Shown: positions 8,025 through 52,343 of the stretch, one piece after another
Position numbering within the stretch: the first letter of the stretch is position 1
How the letters are laid out: the number at the start of each line of letters is the position of its first letter
Assembly (NCBI GenBank): GCA_047285535.1
Contig: JBJBDC010000001.1
Span: 416,136 to 480,135, forward strand
Direction of reading: 5' to 3'
DNA length: 64,000 nucleotides
DNA from: Synechococcus sp.
GTDB lineage: Bacteria; Cyanobacteriota; Cyanobacteriia; PCC-6307; Cyanobiaceae
Translations under genes and position numbers: made by a program
The notes under the pieces: generated by a model
Databases searched by the model: none
What the model was told of the DNA's origin: nothing
The model's input: the letters and a program-made list of their open reading frames with translations, nothing else

Positions 8025-8098
8025 CGGGGTGTAGCGCAGTTTGGTAGCGCGCCTGCTTTGGGAGCAGGATGTCGCAGGTTCGAATCCTGTCACCCCGA
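8025..8098 (+). tRNA. tRNA-Pro(TGG); left boundary of island
   Basis: CGGGGTG/CACCCCG acceptor stem, CCTGC-TT-TGG-GA-GCAGG anticodon arm, GGTTCGAATCC. Confidence 0.96.
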
Positions 8099-8861: not shown

Positions 8862-8877
8862 TTTGAGCAAGATCACA
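8862..8877 (+). promoter_or_regulatory. CRP-type box (TTTGA-N6-TCACA)
   Basis: One mismatch to TGTGA-N6-TCACA; same GCAAGA spacer as other copies. Confidence 0.55.
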
Positions 8878-8918
8878 ACTGCTCATGAGCGTGGTCATCA
8901 ACTGATCCAATCAATCAA

Positions 8919-9614
8919 GTGATAGTGAATTCAGTGAATCCTGAAGTCAATCATGAAAAGGTTTTCACGCCAATTCTTGCGCTCACTCTGGCAACACCTC
9001 TTATCATTGCGGAAAATTCTCAAGCAATAGGACGCCGAAAATGTAGAGGATGCTCAGGTAAAATAGCTATGAAAAATGTAAGCACTGGAATTCACCCTCT
9101 CAACGAATTCAGCACTCATCCAGTTTATGGTTCGCGAGTAAATAAAGATGTTCCCTGGATCACTCTTGCTGAAACTTCGGGGCGAGCATGTGACAAAAAT
9201 GCAACAAGATGTAGAAATAGAGCAACTAGCGTAATCATGAATATGTATAGCAATATCTGGGAAAAAAGATGGACTCACTCAACCGAAGGTGCTAGCAGCA
9301 TTTGGCCACCAAACAAGCCTGGTCGTCCTGTCGCTGGATTGCGCTGGGTGTCTTTCTACCCGCACATCAGGCAGGATTCTTTAAAAGACAGAATAGAAGC
9401 CGCTACATGCTGCAACTCGAGAGTTCCAGCAAACGGCCGCTATAAATTTAAAATTTCTTTTAATGTAAGTGGTGATAGAGGTTGTGGCGATTTAGTGGCG
9501 CCTTTGCGATGGCGACCATTTCAAGCCTTTGATAATATTGGACCTTACGGATATTTTTCAAAAAACTATAATGTTAATTGTAAAGATGTTCGATCAAGAG
9601 GCTTGTGCGGTTAA
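8919..9614 (+). CDS. Cys-rich secreted protein, paralog of 32244-32804; start uncertain
   Basis: Signal-like ILALTLATPLIIAENSQA; shared CRxRA, CC and VNC motifs; ATG 8953 is out of frame. Confidence 0.65.
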   Translation: MIVNSVNPEVNHEKVFTPILALTLATPLIIAENSQAIGRRKCRGCSGKIAMKNVSTGIHPLNEFSTHPVYGSRVNKDVPWITLAETSGRACDKNATRCRNRATSVIMNMYSNIWEKRWTHSTEGASSIWPPNKPGRPVAGLRWVSFYPHIRQDSLKDRIEAATCCNSRVPANGRYKFKISFNVSGDRGCGDLVAPLRWRPFQAFDNIGPYGYFSKNYNVNCKDVRSRGLCG

Positions 9615-9971
9615 TTGCCTTTCGGGTGAGCCCACAGTCAGCAGATGAAGAAACTAATTAGCACGTATTGATGCCATAGCGTCTCGACAAGCCAATTGTC
9701 ATTTGGGAATGAAGCCGAGGTCTACAAGTTTTGGCTAGCACTTGGCATTGAGCAGCTTGGAAGGGATGTGGCTGGTGAGGTCGAGTCGGAATGGATGGTG
9801 CCACTTTTAGTGCTGAGGCAGAACAGAAGTTTCTCTTCAGAACTAAACAACCCTTCCAGCCCATGTGCTGGTCAACCGAACTAATTTTGACGGTGTTTAC
9901 ACCAGGGGAAAGCTTGGAACCATTCACTTGTTGCATAACAATGTTTCTATGTAACAACGAACAACAACCTT

Positions 9972-10028
<57 letters not shown>

Positions 10029-10199
10029 CCTCACCCCACTCCTGAATGAAAGGCTCGATCTCTGGGATCAACAGGATGCCGCTCAAAGGGATGGCGTATT
10101 TCACAAGGCTCTCTTGCTTGAGCAACGCATTCGACAGCTAAGCAAAGAGATCCGTATAGCGATGGGCCTGGAAGAAGGCGTCCCTTTGGAGCAAGGCTG

Positions 10200-10634: not shown

Positions 10635-10843
10635 CCGTTACCCTTGACACCCGCATTGTCCTGTTCCTGATGGGAGAACTACGCGCCAATGATCCAGACC
10701 TCTTCAATCGATGGCTGTCTGGGGGCGTTCAAGACCTAGGGGAGCCAGTGGTGGTGGAGTTGCTGCTGGACTGGCTTGACCCGTTCCTGACCGTGGAAGA
10801 ATAGGACAGGCTGATGGCTTGGCAGTTAGGGGTAAGTCTCTAG
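10635..10843 (+). pseudogene. Relic of small repeated gene ending DRLMAWQLGVSL*
   Basis: LRANDPDLFNRWLSGG...LDPFLTVEE*DRLMAWQLGVSL* with internal stop; other relics near 9706, 17281, 22522, 25695, 28475 and 58005. Confidence 0.7.
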
Positions 10844-10924
10844 GTCTTATGGGGAATAGAAAAGCAGTGATCACTATCCTTTTGGGGGATGCGTGGATTA
10901 TTCGTTTGTTCAGAGGCTTGGATA

Positions 10925-11080
10925 ATGAATCATTCAGCCGTCTTGGTCCTACTCCTGCTTGCGGGATGCTCTTTGAAAGCAGCGCTGCCGACTGTCTCAA
11001 TTCAACGTTGCTACTACGGCGATACTTGCACGACATCCTCAGGAGAGAAGATTCGACTGGCTTGCATTGACACCCCTGAA
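10925..11080 (+). pseudogene. Truncated thermonuclease (SNase) lipoprotein gene
   Basis: LLAGC lipobox, CYYGDTC...KIRLACIDTPE, then homology to 12130 stops. Confidence 0.75.
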
Positions 11081-11168
11081 TCGCTAAACCGCACCTCCTT
11101 GTTCGGTTTGAAGTAGTGACTTGCGTGCTCGGCAGATCTAGATCAATGGGGCCTCAGAAATTCATGCC

Positions 11169-11873
11169 ATGGCTTCCCGTACGGAGTTAAAAGAGGACGC
11201 TCTCAAGTTGCTGATTGGCATTCTGCAGTCAGCAAAGGATCCTGAACATATTTTTAAGCATGCCAAATACTTATCTATTACAAACAAGTCAGAGCTTCAA
11301 CAGCAAGCTGTCAAACAGCTCTTGGATCATCCACATCTTCAACCTCTAATTGAGGAACGATTTGCCATCCCATGGCCCTCACTCGACCAGATGAGTGCGA
11401 TGCCAAAAGGGAGTCTTGGTTTTTGTATGCAGCAAAGACAGAGAAGCCTGGGCATTGATCTGCTACCAATACCATCACCAACAACGGACAACAAGGAGGA
11501 TTATGTCTTGTATAGAAGCGGAATATGTCATGATCTCCTCCATCTCGTTCTAGGTCTACCGAACACTGTGGCTGGAGAAGCAGCAGCTAGCGCTTATAAC
11601 TCAATTACAAAAAAGATGCCACTCCACGTAGGAGCATTAGCTATGTGGTTAACCCACGGTCTCATTGAGCCAGAGGAGCATCGAATGATCTGGGAAGGAA
11701 TTTGTTTCGGAGCCAGAATTGGTTTTGATGGGCTTTTGTTAGATGCTTATCGATGGGAAGAGGGATGGGAAAGGCCATTAGAAGAATGGAGAGCTGAATT
11801 AGGTCTTCTTCCTCTACTGGAACAGTCTCCTTTTCAGGATGAAGTTCATCGCTGGGAGGTGCTTCCTTCCTAA
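11169..11873 (+). CDS. Coq4-family protein
   Basis: PKGSLG, HDLLHLVLG...GEA, RWEEGWERPLEEWRAELG. Confidence 0.8.
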   Translation: MASRTELKEDALKLLIGILQSAKDPEHIFKHAKYLSITNKSELQQQAVKQLLDHPHLQPLIEERFAIPWPSLDQMSAMPKGSLGFCMQQRQRSLGIDLLPIPSPTTDNKEDYVLYRSGICHDLLHLVLGLPNTVAGEAAASAYNSITKKMPLHVGALAMWLTHGLIEPEEHRMIWEGICFGARIGFDGLLLDAYRWEEGWERPLEEWRAELGLLPLLEQSPFQDEVHRWEVLPS

Positions 11874-12129: not shown

Positions 12130-12468
12130 ATGTTTCTTGCTGCCCTTGCCTCTGTCTTTATCGCCTCTTGCTACGACGGCGACACATGCCGAACGAGCAC
12201 AGGAGAAAAGATCAGGCTGGCTTGTATCGACACTCCCGAATTGCGAGGCAAGCGTGCTGATCCAGTGCCAGCCAAAGCAGCCCGTGATTACTTGCGTTCT
12301 CTTGTTGTTGGTCGGGATGTTGGCATCAGGCGCATCACCAAAGACAGGTATGGGCGCACCGTTGCAGAGCTTTTTGTGAATGGCTCCAACGTTCAGCAGC
12401 GAATGGTGGCCTCCAGCCATGCTCAGATCTATTGGCGATACGCCAGCCAATGTCCTTGGACCCGTTGA
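12130..12468 (+). CDS. Thermonuclease (SNase-like) protein
   Basis: DGDT, IRLACIDTPE, DRYGRTVA. Confidence 0.88.
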   Translation: MFLAALASVFIASCYDGDTCRTSTGEKIRLACIDTPELRGKRADPVPAKAARDYLRSLVVGRDVGIRRITKDRYGRTVAELFVNGSNVQQRMVASSHAQIYWRYASQCPWTR

Positions 12469-13922: not shown

Positions 13923-14212
13923 AAGCTTTATTTTTGATCATAAATAATTATGAGTTTTGCATTATGAGATTACTTAAATTGCACACATATATTCACGGCT
14001 TCAAATCCCATTCTCTAAGCTAATCCGCTAAGGCCACGGGCCTAGGTGACCTCATCGCTAAGTCGCACCTGAGCGCCGTGTAGCTCGAGGATCCGGGCCT
14101 GCTACGAACGCAGGTCATCGGCGGGCATAACCAGGAGAGTGGCAGCAATTTCAGGCGAAAGTCAGAGGTAACTGCTTAAAGCATTCGCCTTTGTGATTCA
14201 ACCAACAGCAGG

Positions 14213-14318
14213 CAAGCCTCCTGCGAACGGTGGTGCGGCTGATGCCCATGTGGTCAGCGATGCGTTGTTGGCTCCAGCCTTGGCGGCGGAGACGCTTGTA
14301 GAGTTGAGTCTGTGAGCC
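14213..14318 (-). pseudogene. Helix-turn-helix gene fragment
   Basis: KRLRRQGWSQQRIADHMGISRTTVRRRLA; no native 5' end evident. Confidence 0.55.
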
Positions 14319-14334
14319 AGAAAAAAAGTTAGGC

Positions 14335-14883
14335 TTGTTAAATGATTTCATAACTGAAGAGGTAATCTTCATGTCATATCCAACTCGAACACGTACGTTT
14401 ACTAAAAAGTGTAACTCTGGTGTCACAGTGACCTGCGAGCAAAAACAGGAAAATCGTGCTTGGGGGTGGATTCGCGGGTTGTTTTCATGGTGGGTGGATG
14501 TCGGTACTCCTGAGTGCGAAAATTGTCCCAAAGGCCCTTATCCAAAGGACAGGGTTGTTACGATCTGCTGCACGGCAGGTGCAAAGGTTAAAACCGAGCA
14601 ACGTGCAACTGGTCCGGGCCCGGTCGGTTCACTTGGCTATCTAATTGAAGCTATATCCCCACTTAAATTCAGTGACCTCATTGGTCCAACTCCGATCATA
14701 GTGGGCTTTACTGGTTTAATGCCTTGCATTAAAGTAAATGCTGAGGTACTTGATAAATTAATCGAGAATATGGAGGAGGCGGAAAAGGATGGGCGTTCTG
14801 GCCTTATGAGTCGCAGTCAAGTGCAAACGCAGCAGGAGGCCATCAAATGCCTCAAAAAAGTGAAAAAGAATCTCAATTGGTAG
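14335..14883 (+). CDS. Hypothetical Cys-containing protein
   Basis: 182-aa ORF, probable ATG 14371. Confidence 0.55.
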   Translation: MLNDFITEEVIFMSYPTRTRTFTKKCNSGVTVTCEQKQENRAWGWIRGLFSWWVDVGTPECENCPKGPYPKDRVVTICCTAGAKVKTEQRATGPGPVGSLGYLIEAISPLKFSDLIGPTPIIVGFTGLMPCIKVNAEVLDKLIENMEEAEKDGRSGLMSRSQVQTQQEAIKCLKKVKKNLNW

Positions 14884-17150: not shown

Positions 17151-18283
17151 CAAAGACACCGTGAAAGTTATGTAGCTCTAGCAACAACTGAGATCGTTGT
17201 CGGCTGGGCGAAGCTCCTTTGAGACCCTTGAGGAGGTGCGTCATCACCCCCGGGGGGAGAGGTCGGCTCAGCTTGGTGGCAGCACTATGAGCCAATGACT
17301 CTGACCTGTTCAATCGGTGGCTGTCTGGTGGCTTGCAAGACTTTGAAGAGACTGCCGTGGAGGTGCTGCTGCAGGACTGGCTTGACCCGTTCTTGACGGA
17401 AGCGGAGCAGGCCAGGCTCCTGGGTTGACACCTAGGTGTGAGTCTCTAACTAGATGGGGAGTGAGTCAGCGAAATAAATACCTCAGACTGGGGATGTGAA
17501 GAACAATGGCGTGATTATTCGATGAATTAAGCTATTTCTAACCAGGAATAGGCTTACTCATCTTATCTTTCGAAATTGGCGTTGGGATTCCCAAATCATG
17601 ACCTCCCAAAACATTTCCTTTTCTTTTGGGGCGTCAAACTCTTTGCAGCTGTCAATATTATCGGGTCGATTTATTTTCTCATGAGAATTGATGTATTAAC
17701 GGCAAGGATGCTCGAGTGCTGACGATGGCTGATTGCGTAGATCTTCTTGCAAGTTTGCCGGCATTTTAAGTTAATCTATCAGTTTTTTTTCTTTTTATTC
17801 TCATGTTTGTGATCTGGTTATGTAGATTGATATTGCACTGTCGTTTTCGTGGCGTCCATTGCTGACTGTCTTTGTAGAGTGGAACTAAACTTTGAACGAA
17901 AATCAATATAATGCCAATTGCAGAAACGGTCCACTCCCCCTCAGGCCTTCTTTTTCGGCTTTCAAATTCTGTAGAAAATTAGCACTATCTAAATGCTTAT
18001 GCTGGTATTCTCGTCATGCATGGTATGAGTTCGATGATCTGAATTCATGCTTTTCGGTATTTATTGCTGCTTGATCTGAAAGCCATAACTCTTCTGCCAG
18101 GCTTTTATTGATTGATTTAACTGTGTTCGACTTTCTTGCAATCTCTAGATATTTTGATTGTTTGGTTTTTGGGATCGGTGTTTCCCACTCTTTTTGGACA
18201 ATTTTTTCACTTCATTCCTGCTATGAGTTTACTATTAAGTTGCGAGTTGGATACTGAGATCACTCTCGTTTTTCATGGCGATG

Positions 18284-22437: not shown

Positions 22438-22664
22438 GGGACAAGGGGCGAGGGTCTTGTTTCTCCATCACCCTGCCGATGGCACCAGCTTCAGGCTGTG
22501 ACCGCGCCCACTGCCATCTGTGAGAGAGAGACAGGCTGATGGCTTGGCAGCTGGGCGTGAGCCTCTAGGCCTTTTGGGGGATTGGTCAGCAGTGATCACT
22601 AACCGTTCGGGGGATGCCCCTTCACCACCCTGTCAGCGACTGTGCCATCAGACGCAATCAATCA

Positions 22665-23798: not shown

Positions 23799-24503
23799 TT
23801 ATTGTTCAGGTGGATCTAGCTCTTCCTGAAAAGGGCTCTTTCGCAGCACTTCCTTGAGCTGCAGTAGTTCACGCCATTCATCGAGCGGTTTTTCCCAGTC
23901 CTCCTCCCAACGTGCAGCGATAATGTCATCCCCCACTTCTTTGGCTACTTCCAGTCCAAACATAATTCCATCCCAGACGTCAGGCTTGGCACTTTTATTT
24001 TCTAGGGCGTGAAAAATCCATGCAATCAGGAAAGCTGCTGAGCCAAATTCGTTCATCGTGACGCTGTAATAAGTAGCACCCGCAGCTTCCCCGGCAGGAG
24101 TGATTGGGGTCCCGAGAATCAGATGTAAGAGGTCATGAGTGCCTAAACGTCTGGCCTGTATGTACTCACCATCAGAAAGTTGAGACCCCGGCGGGGATGG
24201 CTGCATAAGAGGAAGGCCTAATCGATCATTGCGTCTTTGAAAGCAACTACCTAAGCTTCCATATGGCATTGATCGAAACGTTTTAGAATCAGGCCATGGG
24301 TGAAAGTAGCGTTCTCGCGCTAACTCCCGTAATTTGGTTGACTCTAGTTGACGTGCACGAGCAATTTCCCCTAAAGGACTGTGATTGATCGTCTCAATCA
24401 TCGGTAGTCCATGAATGAGTGCATGATCAGGATCTCTTGCTGTCTGCAAGACACCAATCGCTGTTCTCAGTGCATCATGACGAAGGGTACGCAGGTCTTG
24501 CAT
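23799..24503 (-). CDS. Coq4-family protein, paralog of 11169-11873
   Basis: PYGSLG, HDLLHLILG...GEA, RWEEDWEKPLDEWRE. Confidence 0.8.
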   Translation of the reverse strand: MQDLRTLRHDALRTAIGVLQTARDPDHALIHGLPMIETINHSPLGEIARARQLESTKLRELARERYFHPWPDSKTFRSMPYGSLGSCFQRRNDRLGLPLMQPSPPGSQLSDGEYIQARRLGTHDLLHLILGTPITPAGEAAGATYYSVTMNEFGSAAFLIAWIFHALENKSAKPDVWDGIMFGLEVAKEVGDDIIAARWEEDWEKPLDEWRELLQLKEVLRKSPFQEELDPPEQ

Positions 24504-25556: not shown

Positions 25557-26363
25557 ATTCTTGAAGCTGATGAATTTGTCTGCCAAAACAACTCACACCT
25601 AACAAATCCTGCCAAGAGCGGAGTTTTTTATTACAGCTGGGAATGCTTTAAGCAGTTACCTCTGATCAATGCACCTTGAAACCAAAATTACGTTGGCTCT
25701 GCTTCAGGAGCTACTGATGGCACTAAGGGCTAATGACGCTGAGGGCTTCAAGTCTTGGCTTGCCTTTGGCATTGAAGAGCTTTGAAGGGATGTGGCTGGT
25801 TAGGTCGAGTCAAATTGGATGGTGCCCTTGTTGGTTGAAGTGGAGCGAGACAGGCTGATGGCTTGGCAGCTAGGGGTCAGTCTCTAGTCCGCTTGGGGAA
25901 TAAGACCGCAGTGATCACTAACCGTTTGTGAGATGCGTGGATGATTTGTTTGTTCAGAGGCTTAGATAATGAATCATTCCGCTGTCTTGGTCCTACTCCT
26001 TCTTGCTGGATGCTCCCTGAAAGCAGCTGCTTCCTCCTGCGCCATCGCTTCATTCCATAGCAGCTTCAGCAAATCGCGCTGCAAGAGGGCCAGGCTTCCA
26101 CCCAACGTCACCACGCCGGCGCCCAAATCTTCCTCAGTGATCAGCTGGCAGCAGCGAGCCAGATCCAAGTGATCCTCGAAGGCGGTCTGCATCCAGTCGT
26201 CCATCAGTCCTCAATCCCGTTCCCTAAGTCTGCTGGGAGTGTTCCCCCTAGGTATCGAGAGCGTTTCACCCAAGCAGGGGGTCCGCTGAGCCGCCCCAGG
26301 GGTGATGTAGGAGATATGGCACCAACAACCCTCCAGCTGTTGAGTGCTGAGGACGATGGCTCT

Positions 26364-27349: not shown

Positions 27350-27449
27350 CCGCCTCGCCAGGAGCGGTGTTTTATTACTTACTGAACAATAGCAACGCTG
27401 AAACTGCCCACTTCACCAAGCTTTCTGTAGCCCTGTAAGCAAGATCACA
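27350..27449 (+). promoter_or_regulatory. Cassette head: terminator relic, AGCAACGCTGAAACTGCCCACTTC spacer, CRP-type box (27434-27449)
   Basis: Closely similar to 27970-28071. Confidence 0.7.
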
Positions 27450-27521
27450 GCCACTGTTGAACCAGGTCATCGAGGGATCTGTCGGATCTTGAGATGCTGT
27501 GAATAAGCCAAATTCAAACCC

Positions 27522-27911
27522 ATGGCATTCTTGAAATCACCTCTGAGCAAAACTCTTTCAGTGTTGGCTGTTAGTAGCATTGCTCTATTACCACTTGCTG
27601 ATGCTGTCAAAGCAGCAACTCACGGCAAGCTCGATGGCTACTGTGTTGTGCAACCACTAGTTGGTGTGGATCAAACCAAATGCTGCGCAACAACATTTAA
27701 ATCGCGTTGGAGAAGTGCAAAAAGACAAGACCTTGCAATGATCCGAGCAGAAAAATCCTGGAGTGCAAAAGCACGTATCAGGCATGGCAGGGACGCAAGG
27801 CTTTGGAGTCTTGCTGAAAATAAGAAATTTGAGAAAAAGAATGGATTAGGAAAATGGAAGAAAGTTCGAGCAGTTGGCACTGCTTGTACTTTCAGAATCG
27901 GTGATCCTTGA
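27522..27911 (+). CDS. Basic secreted protein
   Basis: Signal peptide ending AVKA, Lys/Arg-rich, four Cys. Confidence 0.65.
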   Translation: MAFLKSPLSKTLSVLAVSSIALLPLADAVKAATHGKLDGYCVVQPLVGVDQTKCCATTFKSRWRSAKRQDLAMIRAEKSWSAKARIRHGRDARLWSLAENKKFEKKNGLGKWKKVRAVGTACTFRIGDP

Positions 27912-27969
27912 TGGGGAACTCTTAGTGAGTATCAAAATCTCATGTCGGACAAAATACTATTCATCCTCA

Positions 27970-28071
27970 CCCCGCCACGAGCGGGGTTTTTTTGATTGCC
28001 TACTGAATTGCCAGCAACGCTGAAACGGCCCACTTCACCAGGCTTTCTGGAACCCTGTGAGCAAGATCACA
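27970..28071 (+). promoter_or_regulatory. Cassette head: CCCCGCCACGAGCGGGG-T-run terminator, spacer, perfect TGTGA-N6-TCACA (28056-28071)
   Basis: Read directly. Confidence 0.75.
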
Positions 28072-28163
28072 TCCCTGTTTGATGCAAGCCATCACCTCTC
28101 CGATTCATTCGAGAGATGGTGTGTGCATCGGAGGAACACACCTCCACAACCTCATTCAAAACA

Positions 28164-28361
28164 ATGACCAACAACGAACTCACACTCGATCAACTGCAAT
28201 CTGTTAGCGGTGCGGGCACAGAAACCCACTGGAACCAAAAACTTCGTAATGCAAAAGGTTCTTACAACCTTAAAGAACTTGCGAACTCGGGTGAACTTGT
28301 TCAGAAGATGAAATATATCCCTGGTGAAATGTATCTCCTCATTCCTGGAGATATGTACTGA
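28164..28361 (+). CDS. Bacteriocin-like precursor with short double-Gly-type leader (CCRG-2-like)
   Basis: MTNNELTLDQLQSVSGA leader; C-terminal IPGEMY/IPGDMY repeat; terminator at 28386. Confidence 0.75.
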   Translation: MTNNELTLDQLQSVSGAGTETHWNQKLRNAKGSYNLKELANSGELVQKMKYIPGEMYLLIPGDMY

Positions 28362-28775
28362 TGAGTGGTTTCTAGGACTAATGAGCCCCGCCACGAGCGG
28401 GGTTTTTTGTTGCAGCGGGGAATACTTCAACCAGTTGCCTCCTAGTACTGACTCTCGACACTCAGATAACGCTGGCTTGGCTTCTGGAAGTGCTGATGGC
28501 ATTGAGAGCAAACGATGCTGATGCATCCAGGAGTTGGCTTGCACTGGGAATTGAAGAGCTTGGTAGGGAAGTGGATGCTGAGTTCGAGTCTGAGTGGATG
28601 GTGCCTTGATTGGTTGAGACAGGCTGATGGCTTGGCAGCGAGGGGTGATCCTCTCGCTCTTATGGGGAATCAGACAGCAGTGATCACGAACCGTTTGGGG
28701 GATACGGAGTCATTCCGATTCAGAGATGGTGAATGCACGGGGGCAAAGAGACCTCAACAATCAACCACCAAGCCA

Positions 28776-29484: not shown

Positions 29485-30217
29485 ATATTTTATCTTCTTT
29501 AGAAATAATTAGCAGCCATAGCCTGGGAAAGCAGCCAAAAAAGTAGGCAAGAAACGATGCCCGCCACCTGCTGGTTTTTTTATTGCCTATATGCCGTTGT
29601 GAGCAACAGCACAGTCCTATGGGAGAGCTACTCAGGCAAAGCACTGGAATACCTCTAGGTCACTGACGAGATAGAGGAAGCGATAACAAACTATGAGCGA
29701 GATTTTCGATAACTACAGGCTTCATAGTTGCGAATCGCGCAACAGCAGAACATCGCAACACGAAAAGAACCAAGCTCATAGCATGCATCTAGCGATCTTG
29801 AGTGAGTACTTTGACCTAACTTTTGACGCCTGGCGAAATTTAATGAAGTTGTGTGCTTTTATATTTCAGCCGTCCAACCATTGCTCAATGATTTTCTTTG
29901 CGGGAACTTTAGTAGCCACAACTACCGTGGCATTTGTAATTGTCATGCGCACCATTTTAAAAGAGCTTGATATAAAGCCTTCGCTACCAACTCTTCCTTC
30001 AATAAGCCTTTCTTTTAGGAAGCGTTCAGTTCAGTCAGCCAATATCTGAACGGCCCAGCCCAACGGCATCAGCTCAATCTAATGTCGACTATCAGAGGCA
30101 GGTTTGCTGAATGTAGCTATTGATCTCCTGACTGAACATGCATTGACCTCGCCACGAGCGAGGTTTTTTATTGCTTACTGAAGAACAGCAACGCTGAAAC
30201 TGCCCACTTCAATAGAC

Positions 30218-30988: not shown

Positions 30989-31218
30989 TCACCCCATCTC
31001 GGGTGCCCATCCGGCGGTGCTTTCCATGTAGATGCCCAGAGCTTGCAAGTCTTTGTCATGTGTTGGCCCTGTTCCAATTGCTTCTGCCTGAGATTGCACG
31101 CCACCAATGTTCGGCCGTGCTGGTCGTCTCCATGCCGAAAGTGCTGGCAAGCGACACAAACACTCGAGCAACGGCAGTTCTGTGGCTACCGGTGATCCAC
31201 GTAGCTCCATTCCTCCAT
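30989..31218 (-). pseudogene. Cys-rich small protein (MEEWS family), with stop and frameshift
   Basis: MEEWSYVDHR*PQNCRCSSVCVACQHF; paralog of 41003-41233. Confidence 0.8.
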
Positions 31219-31392
31219 GACCACTCTTAAGTGCAGATGTACTGGCTCGGTAGTGTGTTGCTCGTTAGCTAGCAACACTGAAACTGGCTATTTCAAAAGG
31301 CTTTCTGAAACCCAGTGAGCAAGATCACAGATCAGGTTGAGTGCAATCAACAACCAGAAATACAAAGCAGGCGATGGTGAATTCAACCAATT

Positions 31393-31989
31393 ATGAGTTC
31401 AACTATGAACAAATCACTGTCCCGGTTACTGCTTGGAACGTCTTTACTTCTTGGGGCTCCTTTTATGCTCCCAGAGTCGACCCTGGAACCGGCACAGGCA
31501 AGAGCTGCGTGCGATGTCAGCTGTCGTTACCACTGTAGAAAAGTCTTCTTTAAGGAGGCGTGTAGAAAAAAATGTAAGCAAGAACAAAAGGTGTCATGTA
31601 AGAGAACAAAGCCGACTATCACTGTGACCAATATATGTAGGTATAAAGTCGGCGTCAAAGTAAGGTACAGAAGGAAAAATGGCGATATTTACCACATGCC
31701 GAAGCGTGTATTGAGGCCGTACGAGATATTCGGAAAAGATTCTTTTGGGAGTTGGAGTCATTCCGAAGTTCTGGACCCGGTAGGAGCGAAATTTAATACA
31801 GTCTCTTGGAAGATTCCTGCTGCTGGCCTCAGTCCAGAATACAAAATTTCATTACGAAGTAATGGAAAGTACTATGGCTTGGATAATCAAGGTAAGTGGC
31901 GGAGGTTAATGAAAAAAGATCGCGAATTTCTTACGATCAATCCCTACACTGTCCGTGGAAGACGGAACATCAAAATTAATTGTAGTTGA
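31393..31989 (+). CDS. Basic Cys-rich secreted protein
   Basis: Signal peptide, CDVSCRYHC...CRKKC; CRP-type box at 31314-31329. Confidence 0.65.
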   Translation: MSSTMNKSLSRLLLGTSLLLGAPFMLPESTLEPAQARAACDVSCRYHCRKVFFKEACRKKCKQEQKVSCKRTKPTITVTNICRYKVGVKVRYRRKNGDIYHMPKRVLRPYEIFGKDSFGSWSHSEVLDPVGAKFNTVSWKIPAAGLSPEYKISLRSNGKYYGLDNQGKWRRLMKKDREFLTINPYTVRGRRNIKINCS

Positions 31990-35188: not shown

Positions 35189-36028
35189 TCTCTCACAATA
35201 ATGATTCTCACAACACATTTCTCAGCAGCTCTTGCCCTCGGGCCTTGGCTACTCGATCACCTTCTGGCCCTATTCCCCTTAGGACTCCCCCCCTACGCCA
35301 CCTCAAAACACAGGGCGCAGTGGCATGAAGGTTTCTCCAGTGAGATACATAATGAGTACATGATCTTTACAGCACTTTTTGCATCCGCGTTAGTTTTTGG
35401 ATACTCCGGCCAAGGGGCTTCGCCCGGCGTCCTGGTTGGTATCAAACCTGGGCGATGAAAGTGTAAGTGCAGCCAGATTGCAGTAAAGACTTTCTTTGCC
35501 GTTGTTTCGTCCATTGAAATACAGCAGCTACTGTCTGCGTTGATCATCAGTACAGCGGCGAAATATAGACCGTTGGAGAATCTGGCTGGAGACTGGATAA
35601 CGAATAGTCAAATTGCATCCGTGGTCTCTCACTACCCTGTTTGTGTAGGGGGAAAATAAATCTTGATCCTCAGGTTTGATCATTGAATCCTGATACTCAG
35701 CTTTGGCCTGTGGTTTTAGTTTCAGCAACAGTTGTTTTTTTGTTCGTGGCCTTATCTGCTTCAAGCACAGGCACTTTTGAATGTGTAGGAGCTTGCAAGT
35801 GCATGATTGAATGCCCTGGAACTTGCCTTTGTTGAAAGTTATATGTGCATAGTTCTGGGCTTTCTGACATCCTGTGAGCAAGCTCAAGGTTCCGACTCAA
35901 CTCGCTGAGTGGGCAGTTTCAGCATTACTGTTATTTAGTAGGAAATAAAACCCCGCTCGTGGCGGGGGTGGTGATTTGTTGTTGATTCAGGGACGAGCGA
36001 CAAGCCTCGAATCAGTTTGATCGGAAAT

Positions 36029-38474: not shown

Positions 38475-38702
38475 TCACCCCTCTAGGTGTCCAGTCTGCG
38501 GTGCTCGCCATGAGGCTGCCCAGAGATTGCAGGTTTGGGTGAAGTGTTGCCCCTGCTGGAGAAGTTCCTGCCAGATGTTGCACGCCATCATGATGTGGCA
38601 CTGCTGATTCACGCCATCCCTGACTTGCTGGCAAGCCTCGAAACCACTTGAGCAAGGACAGTTTATGAGTTTCCTCTCGTCCCCATTGCTCCACTCCTCC
38701 AT
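38475..38702 (-). CDS. Diverged MEEWS-family Cys-rich protein, possibly decaying
   Basis: Aligns with 41003-41233; C-terminus shifts frame. Confidence 0.55.
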   Translation of the reverse strand: MEEWSNGDERKLINCPCSSGFEACQQVRDGVNQQCHIMMACNIWQELLQQGQHFTQTCNLWAASWRAPQTGHLEG

Positions 38703-38796
38703 GGCTGCTGGTTAGTAGGCGTGTGTTGACACAAGAGGCGGCAGATGGTTCACCACCAACACAGAAATTGGCTACAGCAGCAGGTTTCTAGGACCC

Positions 38797-38988
38797 TGTG
38801 AGCAAGATCACAGACTTGGGTGATTGCATTAGCGAGTGTGGCTGTGAATTCAGAGAAGCCGATGGAGTCAGGGGCGGGCAGCACAGCCTTGCACTTCGAG
38901 CTTTTCCTCAGAAGATTCAAGTGGTTTGGCTCTAAACAAAGGGAGGAGCCAGCTCTCCTGTTTCGTTCACTTCAAGACACCGATCACC
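38797..38988 (+). promoter_or_regulatory. Perfect CRP-type box (38797-38812) plus conserved precursor leader
   Basis: Homologous to 41335-41525, 45454-45641 and 48766-48952. Confidence 0.75.
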
Positions 38989-39108
38989 ATGACGGAACAC
39001 ACGGCACAACTGATGGATGAATCTCAAAGGGATTCAGAGCTAATTGATCAAGAGATCTCTTTTCCAGTGCTTTGTGCAGTCTCTGCGGGGTTCAATGGAT
39101 ATCCATGA
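38989..39108 (+). pseudogene. Precursor peptide with leader and truncated core
   Basis: MTEHTAQLMDESQRDSELIDQEISFPVLCAVSAG-FNGYP*. Confidence 0.55.
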
Positions 39109-41002: not shown

Positions 41003-41233
41003 TCAACCCATTTCGGGTGCCCAGCCTGCGGTGCTTTGCCATGTGGGTGCCCAGAGATTGCAGGTTTTGGTGAGGTGTTGACCCTGCTGGAGAAGTTGCT
41101 GCCTGATGTTGCACCCCACCAGGGTATGGCAATGCTTGTCCACGCCATGCCTGAAGTGCTGGCAAGCCACGCAAACACTCGAGCAACGGCAGTTTTTGAG
41201 TTCCCTCTCGTCCACATAGCTCCACTCCTCCAT
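41003..41233 (-). CDS. Cys-rich small protein (MEEWS family), intact copy
   Basis: CRCSSVCVACQHF...C...C...CNLW. Confidence 0.75.
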   Translation of the reverse strand: MEEWSYVDERELKNCRCSSVCVACQHFRHGVDKHCHTLVGCNIRQQLLQQGQHLTKTCNLWAPTWQSTAGWAPEMG

Positions 41234-41259: not shown

Positions 41260-41525
41260 AGCTCGGGAGAGGGCTGGTCGTCAACAAGAACAGCTGAAGC
41301 TGTCCACCATCGCTTAGTTGGTTGCATTGGACTCTGTAAGCAAGATCACAGACCTGGGTGATGGCCATCAGCGAGCGAGGCGGTGAGTTCAGAGAAGCTG
41401 AAGGAGTCAGGGGGGCAGCCCAGCGCTGAACTCTCAGCTCTTCCTCAGAAGATTCAAGCGATTTGGATCTACAAAAAGGGAGGAGCCATCCCTTCTGGTT
41501 CGTTCACTTCAAGACACCGATCACC

Positions 41526-41720
41526 ATGACTGACATCAACTCAAAAGCGATGGATGAATCACCCGTGGATTCAGAACAGATGGATCAGGAAATCAAGCCG
41601 GAAGACCTGCATGCGATCTCTGGTGGCTGGGGAAGGAGTTGCTATTACAGCTACAGCAACAACCGTTCTGCTAGCTACACCGCTGCATCAAGTGATGACG
41701 GTAGAAACGGTAGAAACTGA
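41526..41720 (+). CDS. Double-glycine precursor peptide, Ser/Tyr-rich core
   Basis: DQEIKPEDLHAISGG-WGRSCYYSYSNNRSASY...; box at 41335-41350; terminator near 41742. Confidence 0.8.
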   Translation: MTDINSKAMDESPVDSEQMDQEIKPEDLHAISGGWGRSCYYSYSNNRSASYTAASSDDGRNGRN

Positions 41721-44401: not shown

Positions 44402-44503
44402 AATCAGTCTAAAAATGAGCGGGATCCAATGGTCCTCACTGATACCTGACTCCATAGATTCTCTGGTTTCACAAGCCAGCCGATGCCGTCAATCAAGCAG
44501 CTC

Positions 44504-44519
44504 TGTGATTTGGCTCACA
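44504..44519 (-). promoter_or_regulatory. Perfect CRP-type box in an orphan cassette head
   Basis: TGTGA-TTTGGC-TCACA with spacer AACGCTAAAACTGCC on the minus strand. Confidence 0.6.
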
Positions 44520-44632
44520 GGATCCCAGACATCAGGCACCATTAAGCGGAGGCAGTTTTAGCGTTACCATGAAAGAAATAGCAAGCAACAAACATTCCCA
44601 ACCTATCGTTAGGACTTTAAGTAATAGAAATA

Positions 44633-44926
44633 TCAGCTCTTTCCAGTAATGGCCCCATTAAAGGGATCTTCTTCATCTTTGAAACCATCAATATAACTGG
44701 TTTTGTTCGATCCATCAGAGTCACAGGAGCCACAGGAGTCAAGATTCTGATCGACCGTTTCAAGTTCTTTGAGAATCTTTTTAGCTCCTTTATAGACCAA
44801 ATAACCAATACCTCCAAGAACGAGGGCTGGCAAAATTGGGACAGCACCACCGTTATATGACGCAAGGTCTTCAAGACTTAACTCTTGATCAACTGAGTCT
44901 TGGTTGAGGGTTGTTGTGTCAATCAT
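44633..44926 (-). CDS. Double-glycine bacteriocin-like precursor
   Basis: DQELSLEDLASYNGG-AVPILPALVLGGIGYLVYKGAKK...CGSC; box at 45016-45031. Confidence 0.75.
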   Translation of the reverse strand: MIDTTTLNQDSVDQELSLEDLASYNGGAVPILPALVLGGIGYLVYKGAKKILKELETVDQNLDSCGSCDSDGSNKTSYIDGFKDEEDPFNGAITGKS

Positions 44927-45264
44927 GGTTTTGAATGTAGTAGAAGTGTTTGACTTCGGCATACACAACATCGCTGAGGTCAATCCGAAATGCGATGATC
45001 CAAATCACTAATCATAGTGATATTGATCACAACATCATCAAAGAAACAATGTCTTGCCCAAAGCTGTACTCTTCTCCTGTGTATTCGAGTTCAAAAGGTA
45101 TAACCTATGAAGAATATTGCCTCAGTTAATGCATCCTAAAGTCGATTAGATTCAATCGATCTACTCAAGGCCTGGTTCGTATTGTTGAAAGAACAAATAC
45201 ATGGGTCAAACACGAATGCAGATGGTTCGAATTATCATTTATCTTGCTTAAAGAGCAGTGTCAA

Positions 45265-45453
45265 TTAACCTGAGTTGTTATTGCTACCAGAGTTCGAGGA
45301 GTAGCTCGCGGATTTGCTACTACTGTAACTGGAATAACAGGACCGACCAAAACCACCGCTAATCCTCTTCAAAGTCTCAGGCTTAATTTCCTCGTCAAGC
45401 TGCGCTGAATCTTCAGGTGTCTCTTCTAGAGATTGTGGTTTGGGTTCGGTCAT
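45265..45453 (-). CDS. Double-glycine precursor peptide, paralog of 41526-41720
   Basis: DEEIKPETLKRISGG-FGRSCYSSYSSSKSASY. Confidence 0.8.
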   Translation of the reverse strand: MTEPKPQSLEETPEDSAQLDEEIKPETLKRISGGFGRSCYSSYSSSKSASYSSNSGSNNNSG

Positions 45454-46043
45454 GGTGTTTGGTGTCTTGAAGTGTTGGAACCAAAAGAGATGGCCACTCC
45501 CTCTTTAGACCCAAATGGCCTTAGTCTTCTGAGGAAACGATGAGAAATCAGCTCTTTGCTGTACTTCTGAATCCAACAGACTGAACGGATGTGACGGCCA
45601 TACGTGATTCGTGATGATGTTGCTCTGTGATTTTGAATACAGAGGACAGAATCAGTACAATCGAGAATTTCCGCATTGTCGCTCCGTTAACAGACAATAG
45701 GGTGTGCTATGAATAACCACAGAGCTTTCAATAGGACCCAGTGGTGTAACGAGCAAACAGTCCAGGCTTGATCACAGATCGTTGTTAGTTAGGGGAAGAT
45801 AGGTTTAATCGAGAGATTCGACGCTGTCCAGAACACGGCAAATTCCACTTCGACAACGAATGACATCACATCGTATGATCTTAGTAGTACTTGTCTGACT
45901 ATCAGATAAAGCAAGGTTTGTGGTGACTTCAATTACTCAGGCCAACATAAAATACCGATACTTTGATGATGATTCAGCTGTGCTAAGGGGATAAAAATGG
46001 ATTAGTGAAACTCATTGAACCGCAAATAGCCAATACTTGATCT

Positions 46044-47660
46044 CTAACAAGGATTAGGGTTGGTCTCCATAAATGATGCTAACCAAGGGAATCTCTTCTG
46101 TCGTTCTGATAGGGAACAGAGGGTATGCCAGATAAGGCGATTAGATCCAGGAAGTCCATTGTCAATAATAACATCATCATCAACTACCAAAAGGAATGAA
46201 CTTGAAGAGTCATTGTTTAACAACATACTCCATTCAAAAATACCTTTTGGGAACAGAACACTACCGGAGTTTTGGCGAACTTTGATTGATAGTGATTCAA
46301 AGAAGGATGTAAAGTTTTTATTTTCATCGAAAACCTCATCAGCGTGAATAATCCCAATATCCAAGTCACCTTGACAGCTCCAGAAATCTTCAATAGCAGA
46401 AAGCTCCTCTTTAATCTCTCGTTCGATAACCGACTTGGGATCGTTAAGGTAACCAAAGCCACATGGTATATTCATTTCTAAAATCACACCAGAATCAATT
46501 AATTTTGAGTCTTCATTCTTTAGTATTAGATCTATTCCACAGCTAGGGAACCCTAATGTAGCAAGCATGGACTCAATAGTCTTCACATCGTCCTCATGAA
46601 TCATGGATGACTCCACAAGATGTAATGTTGATGCACTTATCGCTGGAGAAAGAGGAATCGATTTTCCCTTCTCGGGAATACACACGTTCAAATCCGTTAA
46701 GGAATAAACCTCATAGCCAATCGTCCGCTTTAGAAGTTTTTCTCTTAAATGTGTATTAGTCTCGATTTCGTTCATTAGTTGTGGATATTTATCGTGAATC
46801 AGCTTGCCTAGGCTTGAACAACCGTCACCAGTAACTGATTTAGGTTTCCCCCTCCATACTGAGTGGAGCTTACCATTACTAAAATAAACTCGATATTCAC
46901 AACCTTTTACTTCCTCCTCAATAATATATTGATCCATATGACCACCCAAGTTTCTGAGTGCGTGTGTCAATTGCTCTGATGTCTGAATACCAATAAAGAC
47001 CTTTTCAGAATTCGAAGATGTAGGCGACTTGACGACAATTGGCCCCTTCAAGGTTGAGGCTACCTCGTGAGCCATATCATATCCCCAAACTGTTGCTCCA
47101 TCCGCTACAGGTAATCCGAAAGACTTAAGATACGATCTACAAACCGATTTATTTGTGCCAACTAACGAAGAAATACAATTGGATGATGGTCTCATATTCA
47201 TTATAAATAATCTTGCATATCGACCAAAACCCATCATCGTATAAGGAAATGAGCCTAGAAATCCACACGTAACAGGGATTTTATTTTTCTTGCAAAAGTA
47301 GTAATGGATTCCAAAGGTGGCTTCAAAGAGTTCCTTATTGGCCTGAGCCTGATTGACTTTGATAACCTCTGCAGGTGTCAGGCACTCATTAACAATTAAA
47401 TGACAAAGTGTATCTATGTCTAGAAAGTGTGAAAGCTTGCAATAAGCATGTGTGATGCCATCAAAAGAATCACCGAAATGAAGGGAAGATACAAGATTGT
47501 TGTCCGAAAAAATAAGCCATTTGTTATTCAGCTCATCCTCTACACACCCCTTTATCCAAAAATGAGCAATCTGTGATCCTGGAACAAAAGATCTCGATTT
47601 GTGGTAACAACTTTTGATGACTCTACAACGAGGTTGGGAATCCATATTGTTTATTGGCAA
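46044..47660 (-). CDS. ATP-grasp ligase (cyanophycin synthetase/GshAB-like ATP-grasp domain)
   Basis: NKSVCRSYLKSFGLPVADG, PIVVKS, IIEEEVKGCEYRV, VTGDG, CGIDLI, ILEMN; no Mur-ligase domain. Confidence 0.8.
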   Translation of the reverse strand: MPINNMDSQPRCRVIKSCYHKSRSFVPGSQIAHFWIKGCVEDELNNKWLIFSDNNLVSSLHFGDSFDGITHAYCKLSHFLDIDTLCHLIVNECLTPAEVIKVNQAQANKELFEATFGIHYYFCKKNKIPVTCGFLGSFPYTMMGFGRYARLFIMNMRPSSNCISSLVGTNKSVCRSYLKSFGLPVADGATVWGYDMAHEVASTLKGPIVVKSPTSSNSEKVFIGIQTSEQLTHALRNLGGHMDQYIIEEEVKGCEYRVYFSNGKLHSVWRGKPKSVTGDGCSSLGKLIHDKYPQLMNEIETNTHLREKLLKRTIGYEVYSLTDLNVCIPEKGKSIPLSPAISASTLHLVESSMIHEDDVKTIESMLATLGFPSCGIDLILKNEDSKLIDSGVILEMNIPCGFGYLNDPKSVIEREIKEELSAIEDFWSCQGDLDIGIIHADEVFDENKNFTSFFESLSIKVRQNSGSVLFPKGIFEWSMLLNNDSSSSFLLVVDDDVIIDNGLPGSNRLIWHTLCSLSERQKRFPWLASFMETNPNPC

Positions 47661-47671
47661 AAGGAATAAAA

Positions 47672-47925
47672 TTAGCTAGGGCAGCACATCAAGCCTGTAT
47701 CACTTGAAGCTGTGCAATTATCGTTACCTTTTAGTTTAGAATCTTTTGATGGCTCAAACTTGTTCGTTTGAAACTGTATTCATGAGCCTTGAAACTCTTT
47801 TCGATACAATTCTTGCTAGTTGCAGACCGCTTAAATTGACCTCCAGAAGCACTATAATCAATTTCTTTTAACAGCTCATTATTGGCTTCGCTGTGAGCTT
47901 CTTCTCTGCTGTCAAAAGTGGACAT
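47672..47925 (-). pseudogene. Precursor peptide paralog with 1-nt frameshift near 47778
   Basis: ...SASGG...SFKAHE / QFQTNKFEPSKDSKLKGNDNCTASSDTGLMCCPS*; aligns with 48490-48765. Confidence 0.8.
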
Positions 47926-47967
47926 GACGACTAGACTGTATCAACTAATTAGATTTCTAGCCAATCA

Positions 47968-48357
47968 ATGTTGCAAGCCAACAGAAACTTAACAACTTTT
48001 CAATCATCTATGCCATTCTCAAACTTTCCAGAAATAGATTGTAGCTTGATGCTTTTAAAATTCACTGATGATAGTTGTGGATTATGCTATAAAATGGCTC
48101 ATTTTGACAGTGTAGTGGCCAATAAAATGAGCATCGATATGGTGGAAATTAAAACCAGCTCTAAGGAGTTTGAGCATTATCGTGAGTTGTTTTATTCTTT
48201 TTTCCAAGATTCAGAAGTTGCCGGCTGGCCAACATATATTTTAGTTCGCATCGATGGAGAAAAAGGTATGCCCTTAGGTGTAATCAAGGGAGCATTGCCT
48301 AAGAAAGAGTTTCGAGAAGGTCTAGCCTCCTTTCTTTCCGAGAATCAACTTGAATAA
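47968..48357 (+). CDS. Thioredoxin-like protein (CGLC)
   Basis: LLKFTDDSCGLC, GWPTY cis-Pro loop, IKGALPKKEF. Confidence 0.8.
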   Translation: MLQANRNLTTFQSSMPFSNFPEIDCSLMLLKFTDDSCGLCYKMAHFDSVVANKMSIDMVEIKTSSKEFEHYRELFYSFFQDSEVAGWPTYILVRIDGEKGMPLGVIKGALPKKEFREGLASFLSENQLE

Positions 48358-48418
48358 CAAGCCATTACCATAGACACCTTGTAAACCATAAATGGCTTAG
48401 CTGGCTGATAACAGCTAT

Positions 48419-48455
48419 ATTGACCCCCATCGATTGATAGTTGATGGGGATCAAT
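48419..48455. terminator. Hairpin between the convergent thioredoxin and precursor genes
   Basis: ATTGACCCCCATCGA...TTGATGGGGATCAAT inverted repeat. Confidence 0.55.
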
Positions 48456-48489
48456 AGAGACTCTTATATTAATTCGATTAAAGTTAAAA

Positions 48490-48765
48490 TTATCCAGGGC
48501 AGCCCATCACTCCAGTATCACTTGTCGCAGTGCAATTATCACCTGCTAGTTCGCGGATTTTAGAAGGATCAAACTTATCGATTTGAAGCTCTAATTCCCT
48601 AGTTTTAAAACTTCTAGCACGAAAAGACTGGCTCGGAGCCATAGGTTTGAAATTGCCTCCTGATAAGCTAGAAAGCTCACTTAAGGTTTCCGAATTAATT
48701 TCTTTGTCTATTTGCTCTGAAGCCTCTGGAGATTGATCAAAGGCTTGTGAGTTGATTTTAGTCAT
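48490..48765 (-). CDS. Double-glycine precursor peptide ending DNCTATSDTGVMGCPG
   Basis: IDKEINSETLSELSSLSGG leader; perfect CRP-type box at 48937-48952. Confidence 0.8.
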   Translation of the reverse strand: MTKINSQAFDQSPEASEQIDKEINSETLSELSSLSGGNFKPMAPSQSFRARSFKTRELELQIDKFDPSKIRELAGDNCTATSDTGVMGCPG

Positions 48766-51879: not shown

Positions 51880-52256
51880 TGAACTTCAGGAAGGCATGGT
51901 TACCTTCTTGGACTTCAGCCATAAATAGGCCTTAGCTGGAGTCAGCGGAGAGATTCCAATGACTCCTAACTCAACATCTCCTCGTAACGGCCATCAGTTC
52001 TGACATGGAATGGTTCACGCTCCTTCTGCTCAGGATTGAGCAACATGGCCAGCCTAAAAACTAACGAGTTCCTCAAAGTTCTAACCATGAAGCCGGTCGC
52101 GCCAGGGGAGCACAAATGTCCTCTCATCCACGTCTATTAGGGCAAGGTCAAGCTTTTCCAAAAAGCCCATCGTCCATGTGAAACCACGAAACGGAGACAA
52201 TCGACCAAGTCTCAAGTCAACACTTCAGAGTTTCAGCAGGCAATCGAAATGAACCC

Positions 52257-52343
52257 TTGAGGAAGGTTTCTTCACGGAGTGGAAACAAGGAAACATGCCT
52301 TGGGTGAAGCGCAGATGCCCTGTCTTTGGCGGGGTTTTGTTTT
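52257..52343 (+). ncRNA. yfr2: Yfr2-family sRNA
   Basis: TTGAGGAAGGTTTCTTCACGGAGTGGAAACAAGGAAACA plus terminator. Confidence 0.75.

Follow-up and report, generated by a model that had tools for sequence, protein, structure and literature searches.

A family of modular repeats, here called heads, is present in a 64,000-nucleotide stretch of a marine Synechococcus genome (GenBank assembly GCA_047285535.1, contig JBJBDC010000001.1, positions 416,136 to 480,135; this whole stretch is the window referred to below). The heads are oriented toward genes, stand before unrelated cargo, occur together with hairpins that have the structure of intrinsic terminators, and are mosaic in sequence. The head is probably a reused promoter or regulatory module (a "putative mobile promoter") that contains a site for a regulator of the CRP/FNR family. 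The clearest view of it comes from a tandem pair of adjacent units (27353-27911 and 27970-28408), whose heads are 81% identical over 111 nt (27353-27458 versus 27970-28079, BLASTN E 1.4e-22), which bears out the shared head of about 100 nt noticed in a preliminary description of this DNA. Both heads consist of a hairpin with a T-run, a 37-nt spacer and a TGTGA-N6-TCACA box, and the aligned stretches sit 64-169 nt (unit 1) and 85-194 nt (unit 2) upstream of the respective ATG codons. The spacer pattern matches exactly at 27391 and 28013 and finds no other site in the window at up to three mismatches (0.00 in shuffled sequence); the first 25 nt of the unit 1 spacer are identical to 30187-30211.

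Matches to the box are far more frequent than expected by chance, with 13 window sites at three or fewer mismatches against 0.93 expected, a number that none of 100 shuffled sequences reached. Two of these sites are perfect (28056 and 38797), and five more differ from the consensus at one position. When ten heads are aligned, the right half of the box, TCACA, is invariant in all ten, and the changes in the left half are uncompensated, with a double change in none of the six base pairs predicted by RNAalifold; the same alignment contains no RNA covariation in either the box or the leader. Because the right half is invariant and the left-half changes go uncompensated, the sequence comparison points to a box that behaves as a site on DNA for a protein rather than as an RNA stem. 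On the 3' side of the box, all ten aligned heads contain a TCATCG-like block and a GAGAWG-like block, starting 25.5 and 49.5 nt away from the centre of the box; the gap between the two is 18 nt long in nine heads and 17 nt in the tenth. Similarity among units that are otherwise unrelated stops just past the second block.

An nhmmer profile built from nine heads finds eight full and five partial heads in the window, and there is one further head on contig L008 of another Synechococcus, which is considered below. The full heads lie at 27367, 27985, 31250, 38743 and 41274 on the plus strand and at 52941, 44588 and 49012 on the minus strand, and the partial ones at 8864, 30163, 45031 (minus), 35952 (minus) and 28711. 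They are thus found on both strands and are spread over about 45 kb, with other genes in between. Each of the five partial heads in the preliminary description was recovered: 30147-30210 as 30147-30211 (89% over 65 nt, hairpin and spacer only), 31271-31329 as 31270-31330 (82% over 61 nt), 35912-35968 (minus) as 35908-35967 (83% over 60 nt), 52864-52916 (minus) as 52856-52941 (71% over 87 nt), and 44504-44568 (minus) as 44427-44588 (99.6 bits, the nine-head profile itself including this copy). Copies beyond that list are the full heads at 38743-38887, 41274-41429 and 48858-49012 (minus) and the partial heads at 8864-8933 and 44939-45031 (minus). A same-strand open reading frame (ORF) of at least 39 aa opens with ATG 18-192 nt past the box start in 10 of the 12 box-bearing heads, the exceptions being 44519 (minus), with a 32-aa ORF only, and 52879 (minus), with none; the L008 head likewise has a same-strand ORF downstream. 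The spacer is recognisable in six of nine aligned heads, the sequences to the left of the hairpins show no similarity to one another, and searches of phage and plasmid DNA collections returned no match to the heads.

The hairpins have the build of intrinsic terminators, with a GC stem of 6-9 bp, a 5-nt loop and a T-run, and the pattern CGCCANGAGCGG plus T-run occurs at eight window sites against 0.07 expected. A terminator scan flags 27969-27987, 28383-28405 and 30145-30165, and the folding energies of these three lie between -13.0 and -15.8 kcal/mol (z about -3.4). In the copy at 30150 a compensatory C-G to U-A change has turned CCCCGC/GCGGGG into CCUCGC/GCGAGG, arguing that the hairpin is an RNA terminator and not an attC site. 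Rfam gives no family at threshold in the heads, and its weak Trp-leader matches are the terminators themselves. Both cargo genes of the tandem pair are closed by the same hairpin, as had been claimed (27970-27992 is identical to 28386-28408, 23 nt). The companion claim that a hairpin heads each unit holds for unit 2, but in unit 1 the leading hairpin (about 27353-27372) is marginal: its folding energy is -9.5 kcal/mol (z -1.5), a value matched by 19 of 200 shuffled sequences, and the terminator scan does not flag it.

The modules do not always travel together. Four of the eight hairpin-family copies are followed by a spacer (27356, 27973, 30150 and 35945 on the minus strand) and two by a different repeat of about 330 nt, here called type 2 (25610 and 28389), while no hairpin precedes six of ten spacers. 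On this evidence a hairpin is best taken to terminate the unit ahead of it, and it leads a head only within tandem arrays; the apparent hairpin-first grammar comes about because in such arrays a terminator directly precedes the next head. As a description, the order of hairpin, spacer, CRP-type box, unrelated cargo and hairpin given earlier is sound; as an analogy with integrons it fails, for reasons taken up at the end.

Cargo 1 encodes a protein with an isoelectric point of 10.4 (26 Lys plus Arg against 9 Asp plus Glu) and a hydrophobic N-terminus. It has no Pfam or NCBIfam match, and its homologues amount to a single cluster, at 92% identity, in a set of 5.8 billion proteins, so that it is lineage-restricted. 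Cargo 2 scores 38.8 bits against the CCRG-2 model NF033456 (cut-off 24), has a leader that ends SGAG, and belongs with 46 homologue clusters at 58-97% identity. That the cargo of the two units is unrelated, as first proposed, is confirmed by BLASTP at E values up to 0.05, which finds no similarity among cargo 1, cargo 2, the products of the ORFs at 31393 and 8919, and the L008 cargo. For these five, the idea that all cargo consists of fast-diverged paralogues was rejected on the same result. Paralogy does hold among six related leader peptides encoded behind heads, which have their leader in common and not their core; four of the six leaders end GG, and that of peptide 38989 ends SAG, similar to the SGAG of cargo 2. 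None of these six matches NF033456, and one head-associated peptide has a sub-threshold match to class IIb bacteriocins (17.6 bits against 21.5). The product of 31393-31989 has 198 residues and is basic and Cys-rich, with a hydrophobic N-terminus. The theme of the cargo, judged from the predicted proteins, appears to be exported products: CCRG-2, leader peptides and basic proteins with hydrophobic N-termini.

At least one association of head and cargo appears to be old. Of the 46 clusters of cargo-2 homologues, 14 carry an N-terminal extension in their annotation, and in 13 of these the extension is the translation of DNA that matches window positions 28082-28171. The promoter-proximal half of head 2 is retained with cargo-2 homologues at 58-86% amino acid identity, that is, down to about 60%, and the 13 conserved extensions argue for a long-lived linkage between head and cargo.

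Table 1. Features of the tandem pair, other heads and the adjoining tRNA gene (window coordinates)
Feature	Position	Strand	Evidence
tRNA-Pro(tgg); island begins directly behind	8025-8098		
Box and promoter-proximal blocks only, about 190 nt past hairpin at 8654; 5' of ORF 8919-9614	8862-8933	+	
Unit 1, leading hairpin and short T-run; weak hairpin-family copy	27353-27375	+	pattern match at 27356, 1 mismatch
Unit 1, spacer block; conserved ends GCTGAAAC and GCTTTCTG	27391-27427	+	exact pattern match
Unit 1, CRP/FNR-type palindrome TGTAAGCAAGATCACA	27434-27449	+	1 mismatch
Unit 1, promoter-proximal two-block element: TCATCG, 18 nt, GAGATG	27467-27496	+	10-head alignment
Cargo 1, 129-aa basic protein	27522-27911	+	ORF
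Intrinsic terminator; closes unit 1, opens head 2	27969-27992	+	-13.3 kcal/mol, z -3.5
Unit 2, spacer block	28013-28049	+	exact pattern match
Unit 2, perfect palindrome TGTGAGCAAGATCACA	28056-28071	+	0 mismatches
Unit 2, two-block element: CCATCA, 18 nt, GAGATG	28089-28118	+	10-head alignment; conserved 5' of cargo-2 homologues on other contigs
Cargo 2, 65-aa CCRG-2 family peptide	28164-28361	+	NF033456
Intrinsic terminator closing unit 2; type-2 head behind	28383-28408	+	-15.8 kcal/mol
Truncated head, hairpin and spacer, box absent; adjoins terminator of minus-strand Cyano-1 RNA	30147-30211	+	
Full head without hairpin; 5' of 198-aa protein 31393-31989	31250-31392	+	nhmmer, 105 bits
Hairpin, spacer, degenerate box	35873-35967	-	
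Full head; 5' of leader-type peptide 38989-39108	38743-38887	+	
Full head; 5' of double-glycine-leader peptide 41526-41720	41274-41429	+	
Full but diverged head; only ATG ORF of at least 25 aa behind it has 32 aa	44427-44588	-	
Box and promoter-proximal blocks, diverged spacer; 5' of double-glycine-leader peptide 48490-48765	48858-49012	-	
Full head; leader with GNRA-loop hairpin as in L008	52790-52941	-	

The best way to model these arrangements is as a set of transcription units with a common control region. Each unit would consist of a promoter region with the spacer block upstream, followed by the TGTGA-N6-TCACA palindrome, by the TCATCG block at +25.5 and the GAGAWG block at +49.5 from the box centre, and by a gene-specific leader, and it would end with a small exported-product gene and an intrinsic terminator of the family type. 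Where units stand in tandem, each terminator lies directly 5' of the next head and would insulate the units against read-through. A cAMP-receptor-type regulator would bind the box and switch the heterogeneous gene set on together. The family may have arisen by duplication or capture of one promoter 5' of different genes, with later gene conversion making the heads mosaic. Islands of marine picocyanobacteria are rich in small genes of unknown function whose control is largely unknown, and under this model a single regulator could co-activate CCRG-2 peptides, bacteriocin-like peptides and lineage-restricted proteins with hydrophobic N-termini, linking cAMP signalling to genes of cell-to-cell interaction. 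The module would then illustrate how a new gene may gain ready-made regulation.

Comparison with a second genome shows how the heads differ from one another. Genome contigs were scanned once with a strict pattern, CTGAAACN{30,36}AGCAAGATCACA, which gave 29 loci; by profile search only the one in L008 is a real head, 27 others have no match, and a 13-bit, 21-nt match in contig L014 was taken as chance. L008 belongs to the nearest relative retrieved, Synechococcus sp. AG-679-C18, and is 94.5% identical to window positions 11046-11756 over 711 nt. Its head (L008 3436-3620) is complete, with hairpin, spacer, perfect box and both blocks, and is followed by a proline-rich ORF that is unrelated to the window cargo. 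The L008 spacer is 85% identical to that of unit 1 and 88% to that of unit 2, whereas the box and the following 32 nt are 90% identical to unit 1 versus 65% to unit 2, and the leader is 76% identical to that of 52916 (minus) versus 41% to that of unit 1. Similarity to unit 1 stops at the head's 3' edge, at position 3576 of L008 and 27494 of the window, and nearest neighbours among the heads differ module by module. A home-made test of the pairwise homoplasy index (PHI) type, run on 69 informative columns of a divergent alignment, gave p = 0.0015 with a window of 5 sites, 0.034 with 10 and 0.09 with 15. The discordant L008 modules and the PHI-type result argue that the heads are mosaics, and some recombination between them is likely on this alignment evidence. 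Taken with the unrelated cargo behind the L008 head, these results suggest that a degree of exchange has occurred.

The same facts can be explained if the heads act as recombination anchors, which is the idea of the preliminary description stripped of its integron machinery. The heads and hairpins would provide common homology by which whole units are swapped, inserted or deleted through homologous recombination or gene conversion, and strains would exchange cargo at these places. We regard this as unlikely, though it would account well for an L008 head that most resembles unit 1 and yet precedes unrelated cargo, for modules of discordant affinity, for the low PHI-type p values at windows 5 and 10, and for the composition of cargo 1, which besides being lineage-restricted is low in GC (44%, and 32% at third codon positions; the heads range over 43-56% and core genes over 51-57%). 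However, no exact match shared by two heads exceeds 25 nt, the longest seen, and a tract of about that length is at or below the minimal efficient substrate of RecA in E. coli. The PHI-type signal also fades at the widest window of that small home-made test, and cargo 2 retains its own promoter-proximal DNA across homologues. Heads placed on both strands, moreover, would yield inversions as often as swaps. Finally, the expectation of the preliminary description that synteny would break inside the heads finds no support so far: the only break seen between L008 and the window, on a single 5.5-kb contig, lies at about 11046, within a truncated nuclease ORF.

A combination of the two ideas, itself unlikely, is that head and hairpin form a standard expression socket, in which new genes for exported peptides and small proteins, many of them lineage-restricted, would be recombined at the 3' edge of the head and at the terminator into one regulon of cAMP/CRP type with a core promoter not of the σ70 type. 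If it were correct, marine Synechococcus would gain a swappable, co-regulated secretome directed toward neighbouring microbes.

Several points weigh against promoter reuse, and against a CRP-type site, as the explanation of the heads. There is no CRP-family gene within the 64-kb window, and NtcA, a CRP-family protein with the site GTA-N8-TAC, is a possible alternative binder of the box. A TAnnnT (σ70-type -10) motif is absent from the 90 nt on the 3' side of the box in all ten heads, and it occurs just once in the ten 166-nt segments, against 23.7 times in shuffled sequence and 14.5 times in random island segments; none of 2000 random sets of island segments was as low, the ten heads being related copies and hence not ten independent trials. 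A scan for σ70-type promoters likewise gave no match in either tandem head, and three sites in the 7-kb region against 7.3 in shuffles. With TAnnnT missing, the core promoter is either non-canonical or located elsewhere; it may depend strongly on an activator or on an alternative sigma factor, or transcription may start at another place, and the lack of a -10 motif in ten copies suggests an unusual type of promoter. If GAGAWG were the -10 element, the box centre would fall at -61.5, a class I activation position, a geometry that we infer and that hinges entirely on this assignment. Only one genome with a head was retrieved besides the source, that of L008, and because the scan pattern was too strict (it fits just three of the eight full window heads) the absence of heads elsewhere means little. 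The mosaicism and the L008 case also fit recombination anchors, and that the heads act as promoters, which protein regulates them and in what direction they evolved are matters that we infer.

The missing -10 motif also fits a different placement of the promoter, in which the box is no activator site. Promoters of extracytoplasmic function (ECF) sigma factors have a consensus resembling GAAAC, 16-17 nt, TCTG, and a core promoter of this kind in the spacer would make transcription start at the box, which would then be the operator of a repressor or a 5' stem-loop. GAAAC and TCTG-type blocks do lie 18-19 nt apart in six of nine aligned heads, and an alternative sigma factor would explain why TAnnnT is absent. 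Yet the other three heads (41295, and 44568 and 48952 on the minus strand) keep the box and the downstream blocks without a well-formed spacer, two of these three still have plausible cargo, and RNA pairing in the box does not covary. We therefore give a spacer promoter only a slender chance, and prefer to see the box as the regulator site of a promoter module.

The heads have their home in a flexible island of marine Synechococcus flanked by tRNA-Pro. The window comes from a marine picocyanobacterial lineage; its left end carries genes for a carotenoid isomerase, TrmFO and a PhoR-type kinase, and it also contains tRNA-Lys, tRNA-Pro(tgg), a Som-type porin and a phycobilisome linker. From just past tRNA-Pro (8098) to about 53 kb extends a low-GC stretch of small genes, most of them without a family. 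Two genes in core surroundings are themselves low in GC, the PhoR-type kinase gene (6415-7575, minus; 40.7%) and the phycobilisome linker gene (62483-63220, minus; 35.8%), against 51-57% in core neighbours. The island holds a diverged pair of Coq4-family genes, 11169-11873 (plus) and 23799-24503 (minus), the first of which has a 94.5%-identical counterpart at L008 4929-5516. Read on one strand, a long trinucleotide run at 9924-10045 encodes poly-Thr; the opposite strand gives poly-Val or poly-Leu. The ORFs 10889-11116 and 25969-26172 have a common lipoprotein-like start, MNHSAVLVLLLLAGCSLKA; the former is a truncated copy in which this start and a short staphylococcal-nuclease-like motif are followed by a stop, and a fuller nuclease-domain ORF lies at 12130-12468.

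Other repeats and structures accompany the heads. A leader hairpin with a GNRA loop is found both in L008 (3590-3605, GGAGGC-GAGA-GCTTCC) and in the window (52811-52796, minus, GGAGGC-GAAA-GTTTCC), a C-to-T change between the two retaining the pairing as G-U. Adjoining the truncated head at 30147-30211 is a Cyano-1 RNA (RF01701; 30246-30310, minus; 53.4 bits, gathering score 41), of which a second, weaker copy lies at 52251-52315 (plus; 31 bits, below threshold); each locus is followed by its own terminator, and the pair makes up an inverted repeat of 95 nt with 80% complementarity. The type-2 heads are an intergenic family of up to about 330 nt (25599-25936, 28378-28705, 10668-10983, 22524-22617, 17274-17448 and 9696-9811), with a small conserved ORF (..LRANDxxxFxxWLxxG..) and a perfect 10-bp palindrome, AGTGATCACT, equivalent to CRP-like half-sites with no spacer between them. 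The copy behind the unit 2 terminator, where 28378-28617 resembles 25599-25838, has a block resembling GATTCAGAGATGGTGA behind the palindrome.

Some neighbouring genes recur with the heads as well. Three paralogues encoding Cys-rich proteins of about 75 residues (41003-41233, 38475-38702 and 30989-31210, all minus) are divergent from the heads at 41274, 38743 and 31250, respectively. Two of the copies, when compared, differ at 8, 17 and 37 positions by codon phase, a 3-periodicity that supports the minus-strand frame; the copy at 30989 seems degraded, and none of the three has a family match. Genes for double-glycine-leader peptides are clustered in 44633-49012 (44633-44926, 45265-45453, 47731-47925 and 48490-48765), along with the gene of an ATP-grasp protein that partly matches cyanophycin synthetase (46044-47660), an ORF resembling thioredoxin (47968-48357) and a response regulator of the LuxR type (49618-50448), and the region 44633-49012 may be a peptide-modification cluster.

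Integron cassette arrays are a comparison raised by the preliminary description, which had proposed integron-like exchange of cargo by homologous recombination or an unseen recombinase. The likeness lies in the series of small units, their unrelated genes and the recurring structured boundary. However, none of the 137 ORFs of at least 70 aa in the window has an integrase, transposase or recombinase domain by Pfam, and a helix-turn-helix (HTH) protein (14151-14531) has only weak, sub-threshold matches to transposase-like HTH domains. An attC site is a long imperfect inverted repeat with conserved core sites, and no site of this type was found at the unit ends, where the recurring structure is a terminator-like hairpin. 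Integron cassettes would be promoterless, in one orientation and served by a common promoter, whereas each unit here has its own promoter-like head and terminator, and the units are dispersed over both strands. An integron array, with no IntI in these 64 kb to support it, was rejected on these grounds.

A non-autonomous mobile element that carries a promoter and inserts 5' of genes, of the Correia or miniature inverted-repeat transposable element (MITE) type, would explain the many dispersed copies on both strands and the sharp left edge at the hairpin in four window heads and in L008. Nevertheless it is highly improbable: the tandem heads have no terminal inverted repeats at homologous positions, no flanking direct repeats were seen, the left boundary is variable (with hairpins missing before the six spacers noted above), and neither a transposase in the window nor a match in the phage or plasmid collections was found. 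The position of the island directly behind tRNA-Pro(tgg) is also that of the tycheposons of Prochlorococcus, in which this tRNA is listed among seven that seed islands (Hackl et al., preprint 10.1101/2020.12.28.424599). By analogy, gain of genes at a tRNA would be a known route for the arrival of cargo and would need no role of the heads. The window differs from tycheposons in having no integrase and no partial copies of tRNA-Pro, no fragment of that gene longer than 12 nt recurring in it as an integration scar.

The promoters controlled by CRP (SYCRP1-type) in cyanobacteria, as described by Xu and Su (2009, PMC2633013), similarly have a TGTGA-N6-TCACA palindrome 5' of genes. That study reports orthologues of CRP, together with predicted binding sites for it, from two marine Synechococcus strains (CC9311 and CC9605) and two Prochlorococcus strains (MIT9313 and MIT9303); the predicted marine sites often precede hypothetical genes, and one in CC9311 precedes a nuclease, a gene type present in the window as staphylococcal-nuclease-type ORFs (12130-12468 and 10889-11116). 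A Synechococcus island module containing adenylate cyclases, CRP and secreted proteins has also been reported (Doré 2020, PMC7522525). In contrast to the CRP promoters, the heads contain no TAnnnT -10 motif, and binding of a regulator to them is putative.

The other resemblance is to the CCRG-2 and prochlorosin-type peptide families, and it was reportedly Aharonovich and Sher who, in 2016, gave CCRG-2 its name. CCRG-2 peptides are described as small secreted peptides with a Gly-Gly leader in Prochlorococcus and Synechococcus (PMC8120280, which credits the leader to Aharonovich and Sher, 2016). Cargo 2 passes the CCRG-2 model, and the six head-associated peptides show the same combination of common leader and variable core; unlike those families, the heads also precede cargo that is not peptidic, namely basic proteins with hydrophobic N-termini.

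The closest parallel to the heads as promoter modules is with the putative mobile promoters of Matus-Garcia, Nijveen and van Passel (2012). Their definition asks for 80% identity or more across 50 nt or more of the DNA that precedes non-paralogous genes of a single genome (commentary by Nijveen 2012, PMC3575422), and the tandem pair, with 81% over 111 nt before non-paralogous coding sequences, falls within that definition. The two have in common that no known mobile element is involved and that the route of spread is unknown. The family in the window differs in being larger, with eight full copies in 64 kb, in being modular, and in containing a recognisable regulator palindrome; its heads are furthermore paired with a terminator of a family type and confined to island genes for exported products. 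What the heads would add to the known mobile promoters is thus a regulator site, a downstream element of fixed geometry without a -10 motif, a matching family of terminators and a coherent theme of cargo.

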